A DNA stretch of 64,000 nucleotides from Euryarchaeota archaeon UBA552 (GTDB lineage: Archaea > Thermoplasmatota > Poseidoniia > Poseidoniales > Thalassarchaeaceae), in the NCBI GenBank assembly GCA_002499585.1, contig DAMH01000027.1, positions 63,789 through 127,788 on the forward strand, written 5' to 3'. A model generated the notes under the pieces. That model saw only the letters and a program-made list of their open reading frames with translations. It was not told the origin of the DNA and ran no database searches. Within the stretch, counting starts at the first letter, position 1. Every line of letters begins with the position of its first letter. Of this stretch, positions 51,963-56,798 are shown piece after piece. A program made the translations under genes and the position numbers.

Positions 51963-53702
51963 ATGATCCCCCACGTGATCCACCCCTTACTTCGCAAAGA
52001 TGTCATCGAGGCACGTGCGTATCAGCTGGAAGGAGTAGCGGAGACCCTTGAAGCATCGACTCTATTGATTTATCCGACGGCAGCAGGCAAAACAGTCGTC
52101 TCTGCCATGGTTGTGGCTGAAAAGATTCACCAGGAAAGCGGATTTGCAGTGCTATTGGCACCTACAGTGGGGTTGGTTGATCAACACTACAAGACGTTCA
52201 AAAATTGGTTTTCAGAAGACATCAGGGTCAATACTCTGACTGGATCCCAACCCGCTAAACGAAGGAAAGGCGTATGGCAATCTTCGGATCTTGTGGTTGC
52301 AACCCCTCAGGTCTTTCGGAACGACGTTCAAAACGGCCTGTTGGATCCTAGTGACCTCTCCATGCTTGTATTGGATGAGGCCCATCACTCAGTCGGCAAT
52401 CATGCCATGGGGCAGTCAGCTGACCTTTACGTCGATTGTAGTGACTCCCGCATCTTGGCTATGACAGCCAGTCCCGGTTACTCAAAACGGCATGTCCAAG
52501 ACCTTTGCAAAAGGTTGGCCATCAATAGAATTCACATGAGGTCTTCCTCGGACTCCAGCGTGAAGAAATACCTCTCTGAATTAGATATCCTTGAAATCAG
52601 AGTTGACGTCCCCGTTGACTTGAAGAAATTAGCTCATCCTTTCAATGAATGGCAAGAGAGCCTCGTGGACGTGGAAAGAAGGCTTGGAAGATATGTACAT
52701 GAAGGCAGGATAGGCTATGCTGGCCTTTCTGGTGCGATGGACAGAGCAAAAGGAGCTATCAGAAGGGGGGATGGTTCTGCATATGCATCAGTCTCCAGAT
52801 TAGCACTAGCAATGACGCTCAACCACCTCATTAATCATCTACTATCCCAAGGAGTGGGTGCAGCGCGGGAATTCTTATCCAGAAAGGCCATGGGCGAATC
52901 CAGAACAAAGAAATCAGGCCGGGATTTTCTCAAAGATCACAGAGTTTCTACCCTAATGAGCCAGCTGGACGGATTGACCGAGATTCATAGCAAGATAGGT
53001 ACGGTAAGAAGGCTTGTGGTAGAGAGGTTAAGGAGGAATCCAAAATCAAAAATCATCATTTTTGCCACATTCAGAGACACAGTATCGTCTATTCACAAAG
53101 CGATCGAGAACATTGATGATGTGAAGGCGCTAAAATTTGTGGGTCAGGCCAAAAAGAACGGCGTGGGCCTTACCTCCTCCCAGCAAATCGAAACGATAGA
53201 CCTCTTTAGGAAAGGGGATGCGAACGTTCTGGTTGCCACCTCTGTCGGCGAAGAAGGACTAGACATACCATCTGCCGACCTCGTGGTCTTCTATGAGCCC
53301 GTGGGAAGTGAGATAAGGACCATTCAAAGAAGGGGTCGAACTGGCAGGAGGAGGCAGGGAGACGTAATTGTTCTCATAGCTGAAGGAACTCGGGACGAGG
53401 GTGCTGCGAACTCTTCCCAGAGAAGGGAAGAGGCGATGTTAAGATCAATCCATTCGGTGCGCAGAAGCTTGTTAGTTGGTCCAATTGACTATAGCGTTCT
53501 AGATTCGTTCTCGGTTTCAAGTGAACAGGGTTTGATCGATGCGTCTTCATTTATTCAGGAAGAAAGGGAGAGGTACAAACATAAATTTTCCATTTCAGAC
53601 ACCTCAAATGAGGGGGCATCTCCCCGAGTTCCTGAATCAGCTGGAGGGCTTGATGCCAAGACTTTCAGACCCTGGGGCCAGTCTGGGTTGGATGACTTTT
53701 GA
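51963..53702 (+). CDS. hef: Hef/FANCM-like SF2 helicase without an ERCC4 nuclease domain
   Basis: PTAAGKT, DEAHH, TASPG, VATSVGEEGLDIP, QRRGRTGR; ends in QSGLDDF. Confidence 0.9.
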   Translation: MIPHVIHPLLRKDVIEARAYQLEGVAETLEASTLLIYPTAAGKTVVSAMVVAEKIHQESGFAVLLAPTVGLVDQHYKTFKNWFSEDIRVNTLTGSQPAKRRKGVWQSSDLVVATPQVFRNDVQNGLLDPSDLSMLVLDEAHHSVGNHAMGQSADLYVDCSDSRILAMTASPGYSKRHVQDLCKRLAINRIHMRSSSDSSVKKYLSELDILEIRVDVPVDLKKLAHPFNEWQESLVDVERRLGRYVHEGRIGYAGLSGAMDRAKGAIRRGDGSAYASVSRLALAMTLNHLINHLLSQGVGAAREFLSRKAMGESRTKKSGRDFLKDHRVSTLMSQLDGLTEIHSKIGTVRRLVVERLRRNPKSKIIIFATFRDTVSSIHKAIENIDDVKALKFVGQAKKNGVGLTSSQQIETIDLFRKGDANVLVATSVGEEGLDIPSADLVVFYEPVGSEIRTIQRRGRTGRRRQGDVIVLIAEGTRDEGAANSSQRREEAMLRSIHSVRRSLLVGPIDYSVLDSFSVSSEQGLIDASSFIQEERERYKHKFSISDTSNEGASPRVPESAGGLDAKTFRPWGQSGLDDF

Positions 53703-53714
53703 GCCTCAGGTACT

Positions 53715-54575
53715 TCAGTCGCCGATTACTGCTACTCGTGTCTTGAGCATCGCAAGCCTCGTTGGGAAGTTGCCTGTCAAGAAGGCTATGTATTCGCAAA
53801 AGTGGATTACAGGAATGTTGGTGTTTAGACCTGTTGACCTGGACGCCTTTCCTTGATAGATGTCCAGAACCCCGTGGGACAGCGTGCAAGCGCTTATTAT
53901 CATCTGAGCACCCATTGATTTGGCATCGGAGAGTATCGTTGCGGATTGCCTCAGAACGGTATTTTCCTCTGAGAATATCCCCGGTGTTCCTGCTGATGAT
54001 GTCCTGGAGGTATATCTGATCGGCGTACCTCCTGAAGACTCTATTATCGATTCCATGTACCATGGATCAAAAATATCATCGCCGCCTACAAGCCCTTCCT
54101 GCTGGAGGTTCGGGCCATAATAAGGTCCTAGTCTGGATGATATTGGGTTCTTCACCTTCTTCAGGAAATTATCCAGCCCTAGATCTTCGACTATGACATG
54201 CAAGAAATGTCTAATTTTTATTGACCCTTCGAGGGATCTTCCAGTAGTTTTTTGCAGTGTCTTGTTGACTTCCCCCATTAGGCTCGGGTCAGATTTCATC
54301 ATTTCCAAGTCCTCATGCAAGGTGGCTGCAGTCGTGGCACACGGGGTGATGATATCCAGCCCCAGATCCTCTGCCATGGACATGGTCCTTGCATTGAGTG
54401 TTATCTGCAAACGCCTGTTCGCCTGGCCCAATATACCTGCACCGCAGCTGGTTGCACCAGGCATGTCTATCAAGTCTACATCTAGGGATCTGCAGGCTGC
54501 ACGCATCGTCTCATCCACCTCTGGAGCGCTGCTGTGGGCAACATTTCCGGGGTGGTATGCGTACCGAACCGGCAT
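53715..54575 (-). CDS. HdrB/SdhE-like double CCG-domain protein with degenerate cysteine motifs
   Basis: YHPGN (cf. YYPGC), SCGAG (CCGAG), LNART, TPCATT, YYGP (YYGC), SAG (CCG), SACTLSH (TACPxCH), IPVIH. Confidence 0.85.
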   Translation of the reverse strand: MPVRYAYHPGNVAHSSAPEVDETMRAACRSLDVDLIDMPGATSCGAGILGQANRRLQITLNARTMSMAEDLGLDIITPCATTAATLHEDLEMMKSDPSLMGEVNKTLQKTTGRSLEGSIKIRHFLHVIVEDLGLDNFLKKVKNPISSRLGPYYGPNLQQEGLVGGDDIFDPWYMESIIESSGGTPIRYTSRTSSAGTPGIFSEENTVLRQSATILSDAKSMGAQMIISACTLSHGVLDIYQGKASRSTGLNTNIPVIHFCEYIAFLTGNFPTRLAMLKTRVAVIGD

Positions 54576-54587
54576 TCCAATTTCTCC

Positions 54588-56798
54588 TCAGAATCTGCGA
54601 TCAAGGGTGTTAAAGATAGATACTACTTCATAGTGCTTGTCCACTCTCTTGTTGAATTGTTTGGGCATCTTACCAATTCCAGCTGGAGGTACTACCAGTC
54701 CGAGGATGTCGTTGACCATCTTACCACCGGTTCTTGTGAAACCGGTCAGCATTCTTGCTGTGACGCCGGAGGTCAGGTTCGAGAGTAGTCCAAGGGGACC
54801 TAGAACTTGCCTGTAGAGTACCGTATCATTTACTCTTCCGCTGCTTTTGAGAGTCCATGCATACCACCACACATGTTTCCCATGACGACCGTTGTACCCA
54901 TTTGATTCCAATGCACTGGTTCTGGCTTCCGAAAGGGCATTTTGAACGCCTCTGCCGGCAAGGGGTTGTCTGGCCATCGGAGCTAAGTCGGTTTCAGCCA
55001 GTATCGCATCTGGTCCGCTCAGGATTTTGTCGATTTGTTTGATCTTCTTGTCAGAGGTTCTGGAATCGGACTTCTTGATCCAAAGGTCTAGACATACCGA
55101 CGGACCGAGGTAGGAGTTAGCATAGGCTACAGAGTCTGAGCAGGAATGCAATATCTGGGATCCGAATCTGTTTGACATGGCATGTAGCTTCGTGGCTTCG
55201 ACAGCACTCATTGGCCCGATAAGGGTCCCCTGATCAGTCCTCAGGGCCTCCCTTGTCTTAGACACATGCCAGACTGATGCTTCTTGTCTTTTCTTTGTAA
55301 GCGCACTGAAATCCACGCATAAGTCCCTTACAACGTCGTAACCGGGAAGTGGCTCAATTTTCATAACAATCGAACCGGGGCGCCCGTTGGAGAGTTGCTC
55401 TATCCGGGTGATGCCGGGGAGAGTTATGCGTCCATTGACGGATATGGCGGTGTTGGGGTCATGTGGAGCTCCGTCTGTGAAACACAAACTGCCGTCATGT
55501 GTCCTTTGGATGGACCTGAGGGCCTCGAGCAAGGTCATGTGGCCTGGGAGCGAGCATAACCAAGTGTCGAGTCCACTCGTTTTCTCATGAGGGTCGTACC
55601 TGAACACTCCCAGTTGAATTTCGACTTCTTCGCCGTGCAAGTCTGGGATGCTGAAGCCGTCTTCACCATCGGCTACCACTGCACCGCCATCAGCCATGTC
55701 GCGTATGGAATCAATGAGCTCTTCGTGCAAGTTTCCTGAGTCATCGACTGCCGAGAGCATGGTTAGGGCTTCAGAGGCCCATTCCGATGCTACGGCCTCA
55801 TAGTCCACATCGCAGTCTACGCGGGCTGCCACGCGCCTTGCACCTAACTCTTCCAACTTGTTGTCCCAATCTTTTCCTGATTGGCAAAACAACTCGTATG
55901 AGGTGTCTCCGAGAGCGAGTACCGAGAAGGAAACGCCGTCCATTTTTGGGGCGCTTCCCGAGGAGGCGGCCAACCAAAGGGCCTCTGCATTGTCTGGCAT
56001 CTCTCCTTCGCCCCATGTCGAGCAGATGATGGCGACTCTTTTCATCGACGCCATGGCATTGATGTCAAAGCCGTCCATGTCATGAACGATTCCTTTCAAT
56101 CCATAATTTTCAGCTCTCTTTGCGAAATTGGATGCTAGTTGTTCGGAATTCCCCGATTGAGAACCAAAGAATATGTTCAGTGTTCTGTCTCCGGTTCCGA
56201 GTAAATCCTCAAGGCCGCCTCCAACGGCAATTTTATCCTTATTTTGATCCGTTTCGATCGCTTTTTCATCAGGGGTCTCTGGGACAGATCGGACTTCTCC
56301 TATTTTGCTTGGGTCGTAGGCTCCCGACGAGTCTACTACGGATAGGTGGGAAAGTGCTTCTGAAGTAAATAGTGCTGCAGGCTTATCATAATCTACGTCA
56401 CAATCAACCCTAGTGACCAGCCTATTTGCTCCTTGTTTTTCGAACCATTGGTCCCAGTCTTTTCCAGATTGACAGAAAAGATCGTATGACGAATCCCCTA
56501 GGGAACATACTGCAAAATGGCAGGTGGTCAAGGAGGGGAGGGAATCGCCTTGGGCTTGCTGCCAAAGATCCTCTGCATTGTCAGGCATCTCCCCCTCACC
56601 CCATGTGCTGCAGTAAATTAGGACCCTGTTGTAACTAGATAGGTCGGAAATTTTTATTTCGTCCATCCCTTTTACGATCGGTTCAAGGCCGTGTGATTTG
56701 GCTTCTTTGGCGGCTTTGGTGCAGAGGTCCTCAGCGTTGCCGGACTGGGATCCGTAAAGTATCAGCAAGGGAAGTTCGGAGGACATTGTAATCACCAT
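54588..56798 (-). CDS. Tandem flavodoxin-flavodoxin fused to a cysteine-less SdhB/FrdB-like domain
   Basis: Two FMN-binding domains (GSQSGN, STWGEGEMPDNA, LGD.SY.LFCQSG). These are followed by the SdhB landmarks VFRYDP, TLLEAL..I...DGSL.F, VNG, IEPLPGYDVVRDLCVD, YLGP and DSR. Confidence 0.88.
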   Translation of the reverse strand: MVITMSSELPLLILYGSQSGNAEDLCTKAAKEAKSHGLEPIVKGMDEIKISDLSSYNRVLIYCSTWGEGEMPDNAEDLWQQAQGDSLPSLTTCHFAVCSLGDSSYDLFCQSGKDWDQWFEKQGANRLVTRVDCDVDYDKPAALFTSEALSHLSVVDSSGAYDPSKIGEVRSVPETPDEKAIETDQNKDKIAVGGGLEDLLGTGDRTLNIFFGSQSGNSEQLASNFAKRAENYGLKGIVHDMDGFDINAMASMKRVAIICSTWGEGEMPDNAEALWLAASSGSAPKMDGVSFSVLALGDTSYELFCQSGKDWDNKLEELGARRVAARVDCDVDYEAVASEWASEALTMLSAVDDSGNLHEELIDSIRDMADGGAVVADGEDGFSIPDLHGEEVEIQLGVFRYDPHEKTSGLDTWLCSLPGHMTLLEALRSIQRTHDGSLCFTDGAPHDPNTAISVNGRITLPGITRIEQLSNGRPGSIVMKIEPLPGYDVVRDLCVDFSALTKKRQEASVWHVSKTREALRTDQGTLIGPMSAVEATKLHAMSNRFGSQILHSCSDSVAYANSYLGPSVCLDLWIKKSDSRTSDKKIKQIDKILSGPDAILAETDLAPMARQPLAGRGVQNALSEARTSALESNGYNGRHGKHVWWYAWTLKSSGRVNDTVLYRQVLGPLGLLSNLTSGVTARMLTGFTRTGGKMVNDILGLVVPPAGIGKMPKQFNKRVDKHYEVVSIFNTLDRRF

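Follow-up and report, generated by a model that had tools for sequence, protein, structure and literature searches.

CCG-domain proteins (HdrB, SdhE, GlpC, LutA, DsrK and EtfD) are defined by their cysteine motifs and by unusual noncubane iron-sulfur (Fe-S) clusters. One of them, SdhE, contains two CCG domains and comes after SdhB among the subunits of type-E succinate:quinone oxidoreductases and fumarate reductases. Here we describe a cluster-poor SdhE/HdrB-like protein encoded within a 64,000-nucleotide stretch of archaeal DNA (the whole stretch analysed, referred to hereafter as the window), whose source belongs to the order Poseidoniales (Marine Group II), family Thalassarchaeaceae; archaeal ribosomal protein genes, a thermosome gene and hef lie nearby. 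Sequence comparisons favor, in our judgement, a reading in which the protein is a functional, Fe-S-free descendant of SdhE that probably provides docking and an acceptor site within a tethered-flavodoxin module, its old cluster cavity being re-used as a small site.

In length, in two-domain architecture and in the position of its gene directly downstream of an SdhB homologue, the protein resembles SdhE (formerly SdhC) of the Sulfolobus/Acidianus type-E succinate:quinone reductase and of 8-methylmenaquinol:fumarate reductase. It departs from SdhE in retaining only 3 of the 10 motif cysteines, so that the [4Fe-4S] cluster reported for SdhE (PMC2754724) could not be bound in the known way; in an operon that lacks sdhA; in an SdhB-like partner that is cluster-free and carries flavodoxin domains; and in scoring 88.3 bits over residues 5–266 against the NCBIfam model MFR_anch_SdhE (NF042965), whose cut-off is 500. 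HdrB of the methanogenic heterodisulfide reductase (PDB 5ODC, 8RVU) is the best match in both sequence and structure, but both of its noncubane [4Fe-4S] sites are incomplete in the protein described here, and the bridging cysteines that are catalytic in Hdr (Cys81 and Cys234; PMC13083937) are replaced by T82 and S233. Neither HdrC nor HdrA belongs to the context (the neighbors being SdhB-like, thermosome and hef genes), and the lineage is one of aerobic heterotrophs, not methanogens.

Two further comparisons are relevant. EtfD, HdrD and GlpC demonstrate that a CCG domain may lose cysteines without losing its function: degenerate N-terminal CCG domains had been noted by 2008 (PMC2754724), and domain 1 of EtfD, with Thr in place of the second Cys of the CC pair, binds a linear [3Fe-4S] cluster (PMC13083937). 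These proteins nevertheless keep at least four cysteines in the altered domain and a complete other domain, whereas the present protein is dead in both. TfrB of thiol:fumarate reductase unites an SdhB-like and two CCG modules, in the same order, as a one-chain fusion, and our SdhB-like partner matches it weakly (NF004898, E 2e-5); TfrB is, however, fused, fully cluster-bearing and works with TfrA. The features of the locus, all on the reverse strand, are as follows.

53715–54575, reverse strand: cluster-poor SdhE/HdrB-like gene, 286 amino acids, two degenerate CCG domains (open reading frame, HdrB alignment, fold and conservation).
54141–54575, reverse strand: remnant of CCG domain 1, approximately residues 1–145 (alignment to HdrB and codon check).
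Domain 1 motif codons, reverse strand: N11 at 54543–54545, S43 at 54447–54449, C44 at 54444–54446, C79 at 54339–54341, T82 at 54330–54332.
53718–54140, reverse strand: remnant of CCG domain 2, approximately residues 146–286 (HdrB alignment and codon check).
Domain 2 motif codons, reverse strand: P155 at 54111–54113, S194 at 53994–53996, A195 at 53991–53993, C230 at 53886–53888, S233 at 53877–53879, followed by the invariant H234 at 53874–53876.
54576–54587, reverse strand: 12-nucleotide spacer between the partner gene and the SdhE-like gene, with GGAG ahead of the ATG (sequence).
54588–56798, reverse strand: upstream partner gene, flavodoxin-flavodoxin-SdhB-like, 736 amino acids, without cluster cysteines (Pfam and cysteine columns).

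HMMER (phmmer) aligns residues 4–281 with the solved HdrB chains 8rvv_B and 5odc_B (E ~1e-32, 26–30% identity), placing the five motif cysteines of HdrB domain 1 opposite N11, S43, C44, C79 and T82, and those of domain 2 opposite P155, S194, A195, C230 and S233. The two-motif pattern CX31-39CCX35-36CXXC does not hold, its ten positions reading N,S,C,C,T / P,S,A,C,S with Cys at three; the preliminary description had made the same count from the sequence, and the alignments confirm it. Two further cysteines, C28 and C260, bring the total in the protein to five, and both lie outside the motifs and vary among orthologues. The rest of the motif environment (YAYHPG, (S)CGAG, LNAR, YYG and IPVIH) agrees with the consensus of canonical relatives, as had been proposed for the YxPG, CGAG, LNAR, YYG and IPVIH elements. 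Pfam CCG (PF02754) recognizes domain 1 only (31.9 bits, cut-off 20.6), the NCBIfam HdrB equivalog TIGR03288 matches over the full length but far below its cut-off (117 bits against 345), and a profile built from the orthologues gives E 5e-54. The pattern of cysteine loss is exceptional, because all ten cysteines are kept by 102 of the 112 closest full-length 50%-cluster representatives outside the query's own family. Among the clusters known from CCG domains, the noncubane [4Fe-4S] type is held by five cysteines and the linear [3Fe-4S] of EtfD by four, the minimum described (PMC13083937); since fewer than four per domain remain here, the protein should be unable to bind a cluster in any described way.

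The disappearance of 7 of 10 defining cysteines from an operon without sdhA might be taken to mark a decaying relic (a pseudogene or drifting open reading frame) of a lost type-E succinate dehydrogenase, but the conservation data refute this and we give it scarcely any credence. In a six-frame search, all 121 genomes of the order (21 of 21 genera) yielded a single copy free of internal stops. The ratio of nonsynonymous to synonymous substitution rates (dN/dS, pairwise) is 0.02–0.09 for unsaturated pairs in all three of the sequence states described below, and the substituted residues are themselves invariant. Random substitution among orthologues was looked for and not seen: N11, S43, C44, C79, T82, P155, S194 and C230, eight of the motif positions, are invariant in the 120 closest homologues. 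Across 48 orthologues 38 residues are invariant, the family-specific ones among them being E19, Q51, L56-Q57, N143, D166-D167, P171, Y173, E175, D238, Y240, R273 and R280. The AlphaFold2 model is confident (mean predicted local distance difference test score, pLDDT, 92; predicted template modeling score, pTM, 0.91) and superposes on HdrB with a template modeling (TM) score of 0.87–0.88 and a root-mean-square deviation of 2.0 Å (Foldseek). The gene order thermosome / (ferredoxin or flavodoxin)-SdhB-like / HdrB-like / hef is kept in every locus inspected. The claim that this is a cluster-poor yet functional HdrB/SdhE homologue is supported by the invariant replacement residues and by the dN/dS values. 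As an observation in its own right, the best non-Hdr match to the model is PDB 3kwl, a 498-residue 'hypothetical protein from Helicobacter pylori' (TM 0.76, 16% identity), a CCG-fold protein of solved structure whose cofactor content could be informative.

The state of the motifs was surveyed in the 48 orthologues, which represent 21 genera (g1–g21, the query genus being g1) in three families: f1 (Thalassarchaeaceae), f2 and f3 (Poseidoniaceae). Three states were found.

State A, CCCCC / (A,S,V)SVCS, domain 1 intact and domain 2 dead: f1 genera g2, g3, g7, g10 and part of g9; f2 genus g14; f3 genera g19 and g20.
State B, NSCCT / PS(V,A)C(S,A): the remaining f1 genera, including the query genus g1.
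State C, N(S,G)DC(S,A) / (P,S)SVCS: f3 genera g15–g18 and g21.

Domain 2 is degenerate (xS[V/A]C[S/A]) in 48 of 48 orthologues, with S194 and C230 invariant. As it is dead in every sampled genome, the cluster site of domain 2 was most likely lost in the ancestor of the order. The only motif cysteines invariant order-wide are C79 and C230, accompanied by the CCG glycines G45 and G196 and by H234. Conservation of the residual cysteines, which the preliminary description had offered as a check, therefore extends to C79 and C230 across the order but not to C44, which is Asp in all nine of the cluster-less (state C) Poseidoniaceae sequences; this fixed alternation of Cys and Asp fits a ligand or catalytic role at position 44 better than drift. 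Outside the order, hits in the sister order are restricted to two genomes of one family (G136 and G145; 23–27% identity), and these carry all ten cysteines. Degenerate N-terminal CCG domains being known already, what appears new is a family whose members all have a dead C-terminal CCG domain, and in which the N-terminal domain has also been lost, twice. Separately, an unrelated HdrB/SdhE-family representative (P0223) from outside Marine Group II reads CCCCC / PWCCA, a second, independent degenerate C-terminal CCG domain. We also observe that Thalassarchaeaceae with an intact domain 1 have larger genomes (1.8–2.2 Mb) than those with the NSCCT form (mostly 1.2–1.6 Mb), cluster loss here accompanying genome streamlining, a pattern that does not hold in Poseidoniaceae.

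The product of the partner gene carries two Flavodoxin_1 domains (Pfam, E 2.6e-62), both of which retain the flavin mononucleotide (FMN) loop motifs GSQSGN, STWGEGE and LGD(S/T)SY, followed by a Fer2_3 domain (E 9e-10). None of the 13 cysteine columns of the genome's canonical SdhB is Cys in the partner at any of 29 loci, state A loci included, and its SdhB-like part holds no conserved cysteine able to supply inter-subunit ligands. The query genus accordingly presents a two-gene module without any Fe-S motif, whose evident redox cofactors are the partner's two FMN sites only. The two genes sit next to each other at every locus examined and a TGATG stop/start overlap occurs in many orthologous loci; on this sequence arrangement the SdhE-like gene is evidently translationally coupled to the upstream flavodoxin-flavodoxin-SdhB-like gene. 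The architecture of the partner, with ferredoxin (Fd) and flavodoxin (Fld) domains ahead of the SdhB-like part, varies as follows.

Fd-Fd-SdhB-like: one f2 genome (L041).
Fd-Fld-SdhB-like: most genera.
Fld-Fld-SdhB-like: g1 (query), g4, g11 and g13.
Fld-SdhB-like: g12.

In some streamlined Thalassarchaeaceae the ferredoxin domain is thus swapped for a second flavodoxin (loci L037–L064 compared). More than one swap may have taken place, since the partner tree nests g5, an Fd-Fld genus, within Fld-Fld genera. One locus (L031) at first sight contains a fusion of the two genes (a 760-residue open reading frame, with an open frame of 997 residues in the six-frame search), and we reject it as an artefact of the open upstream frame: the upstream gene terminates there after DGRF, with the usual TGATG overlap.

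As for ancestry, Aquificota, Micrarchaeia, Eremiobacterota and others supply the closest ten-cysteine relatives, and in loci gathered with a single protein (P0127) as query, SdhB lies directly upstream in 73 of 80, with SdhA before SdhB in 51 of 80. Because these nearest relatives sit in sdhA-sdhB-sdhE operons, the protein is, by this comparison, a descendant of the SdhE subunit of a type-E complex II and not of methanogen-type HdrB. The genome's canonical succinate dehydrogenase lies elsewhere (C9:36380-40143) and comprises a 273-residue predicted membrane protein (presumed anchor), SdhA, and an SdhB with the expected cluster-cysteine motifs; some stretches of the genome sequence read as N or X (C9:37868-38258 and C18:132478-132900), part of this canonical sdhA among them. 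The preliminary description had envisaged comparison with a canonical paralogue in the same genome, but no canonical SdhE paralogue exists there, the other CCG proteins being HdrD-like fusions to membrane domains.

A candidate for the missing flavoprotein was considered in an orphan SdhA/FrdA-family protein (585 amino acids, C18:133764-135521), encoded 15 kb from the gene and ~6 kb past the end of the window. Its best match is TfrA (NF004900, 556 bits) and no SdhB gene is adjacent. Orthologues (75–78% identity) were found in one of 35 other Poseidoniales genomes sampled and in three sister-order genomes, a patchy distribution set against a gene pair present in every genome, and we reject it as the missing partner; the distribution suggests an accessory, horizontally moving gene.

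We propose the following explanation. An ancestral sdhB-sdhE pair would have lost its flavoprotein gene in Marine Group II archaea; SdhB would have shed its three clusters and acquired ferredoxin and/or flavodoxin domains at its N terminus, while SdhE would have lost the domain 2 (C-terminal) cluster, the five-cysteine site of domain 1 being kept in several genera. Domain 1 would subsequently have been lost twice and convergently (C11 to N, C43 to S), within Thalassarchaeaceae and within Poseidoniaceae. In present-day forms the SdhE-like protein probably still pairs with the SdhB-like domain in the manner of SdhE and SdhB, although its role as an electron wire would have ended, leaving it as a docking and acceptor-site subunit. 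The former cluster cavity would keep its shape (G45, G196 and H234 being invariant) and hold a minimal site. To this site each of the two pseudo-symmetric domains would contribute one cysteine (C79 and C230), position 44 adding Cys or Asp; such a site could bind a mononuclear metal or a substrate, or act as a thiol pair. The selective driver was likely iron saving and/or oxygen tolerance.

The order of events is informed by the partner gene, whose tree agrees with taxonomy: f1 forms one clade (99/99) that holds states A and B, and f3, which comprises state A (g19, g20) and state C, is compatible with one clade (approximately unbiased (AU) test, p = 0.49). Because this tree keeps the families as clades with mixed states, the domain 1 losses are placed separately, and the simpler reading is that the domain was lost twice, each time through the same replacements (position 11 to N, position 43 to S), giving NSCCT in Thalassarchaeaceae and NSDC[S/A] in Poseidoniaceae. 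Decay was also staged, domain 2 and the SdhB-like neighbor going first and domain 1 later, because the neighbor lacks cluster cysteines even where domain 1 is still CCCCC. The suggestion that the protein degenerated in parallel with its SdhB-like neighbor hence stands insofar as both are degenerate, but not as to timing.

Several observations weigh against this account. The SdhE-like protein's own tree, computed with motif columns masked, groups by state and not by family, and constraining it to keep each family intact is accepted at best marginally by the AU test (p = 0.066 for f1, 0.042 for f3); a single loss of domain 1 followed by transfer therefore keeps some probability, two convergent losses with accelerated change afterwards being the simpler reading. 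Rooting the gene tree with the canonical homologues of the sister order was tried and discarded as uninformative, the branches measuring 5–7 substitutions per site. Iron sparing as the driver is an inference, and most genera with a degenerate domain 1 still have a ferredoxin domain in the partner. In addition, no partner flavoprotein, substrate or acceptor was identified, the TfrA-like gene nearby being too patchy to serve as a general partner.

What the residual site does can be read in several ways. The preliminary description had raised a zinc site or a redox-active thiol, an idea with which the data agree and which stays a hypothesis. The three remaining cysteines and one N/O ligand such as H234 could form a structural mononuclear zinc (or iron) site that bridges the domains, Asp replacing C44 in Poseidoniaceae and the protein being purely a structural scaffold or anchor. 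This is unlikely, though by no means far-fetched: an isolated S3(N/O)1 zinc site was reported by X-ray absorption spectroscopy on recombinant HdrB and SdhE (PMC2754724), the query has exactly three motif cysteines, C79, C230 and H234 are invariant, and replacement of Cys by Asp, as at position 44, is a usual sign that a metal ligand has been preserved. Structures of Hdr and EtfD, by comparison, hold two Fe-S clusters in two CCG domains and no separate zinc is mentioned (PMC13083937), C44 and C79 derive from one former cluster site and C230 from the other, and an anchor finds no sign of membrane binding in the sequence. We consider it improbable that C79 and C230 form a redox-active dithiol/disulfide in place of both noncubane clusters, making the module an FMN-driven thiol:disulfide (or quinone) oxidoreductase. 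The two residues do occupy equivalent positions of pseudo-symmetric domains and are the sole invariant cysteines, Hdr splits its disulfide substrate between two cluster sites, a residue of the domain 1 CxxC loop of EtfD reaches the domain 2 cluster and hence the loops are neighbors (PMC13083937 for both), and the partner carries FMN domains; but the catalytic cysteines 81 and 234 of Hdr are those that were lost, the retained ones being their CxxC partners, direct reduction of a protein disulfide by a flavodoxin-type FMN is not known, and neither is a candidate substrate.

An unusual Fe-S cluster, for instance a [2Fe-2S] or inter-domain cluster ligated by C44, C79 and C230 together with His, Asp, Ser or Asn, strikes us as very improbable. 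In its favor, CCG sites tolerate altered ligands (EtfD has both a linear [3Fe-4S] cluster with four cysteines and a His-completed noncubane cluster; PMC13083937), H234 does not vary, and one family has Asp at position 44. Against it, every CCG cluster described has more cysteines than the two left in domain 1 and the one left in domain 2, the residues that replaced the others (N, S, T, P and A/V) make poor cluster ligands, and the partner offers no conserved cysteine. Two-cysteine chemistry of the Asp/Glu/hydantoin racemase kind (PF01177), considered as Foldseek listed Asp/Glu racemases, was not supported. Sub-threshold PF01177 hits occur in 36 of 55 orthologues (best 25 bits, cut-off 31, region 205–280) against 4 of 55 canonical relatives, and the query itself has none; hhalign gives a probability of 0.3% for Escherichia coli MurI, pairwise alignments fall in inconsistent registers, and the Foldseek superpositions on racemases reach a TM score of 0.3–0.35.

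A bolder and rather unlikely reading of the gene pair would be a complex-II-derived oxidoreductase that in the query genus operates without Fe-S, passing electrons from tethered FMN to a cysteine or mononuclear-metal active site (C79/C230 with C44 or D44) in the former noncubane-cluster cavity of the SdhE-like subunit, having arisen convergently in the two main surface-ocean families of Marine Group II as an adaptation to iron scarcity and oxygen. A role as membrane anchor, which the preliminary description had suggested, finds no support in the sequence: the SdhE-like protein has no transmembrane segment (maximum Kyte-Doolittle value 1.15 over 19-residue windows), and its helix hydrophobic moments (0.15–0.56) are ordinary for a soluble protein. 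Even for canonical SdhE, anchoring is a hypothesis only (PMC2754724).

The case matters in that the fold and strong selection outlast the clusters, so the CCG scaffold would have a function beyond holding iron-sulfur. The order provides a natural series, from an intact domain 1 to two forms that lost the cluster independently and share their replacement residues, which makes testable what a CCG domain does without its cluster and whether iron limitation or oxygen drives Fe-S removal from respiratory-type modules. The gene belongs to the core of Marine Group II, among the most abundant ocean archaeal groups, and database labels (heterodisulfide reductase subunit B, or succinate dehydrogenase subunits) are misleading for metabolic reconstructions of these archaea. 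In the library searched, we found no paper linking Marine Group II or Poseidoniales with this gene pair, or with the combination of flavodoxin and succinate dehydrogenase.

At the downstream border of the SdhE-like gene (window positions 53702–53715), the convergent hef ends 13 nucleotides away. In other genera (loci L037–L048) a gap of ~0.9 kb separates the two genes and the Hef matches end earlier; the C-terminal region of Hef, or a small extra gene, may differ between genera.

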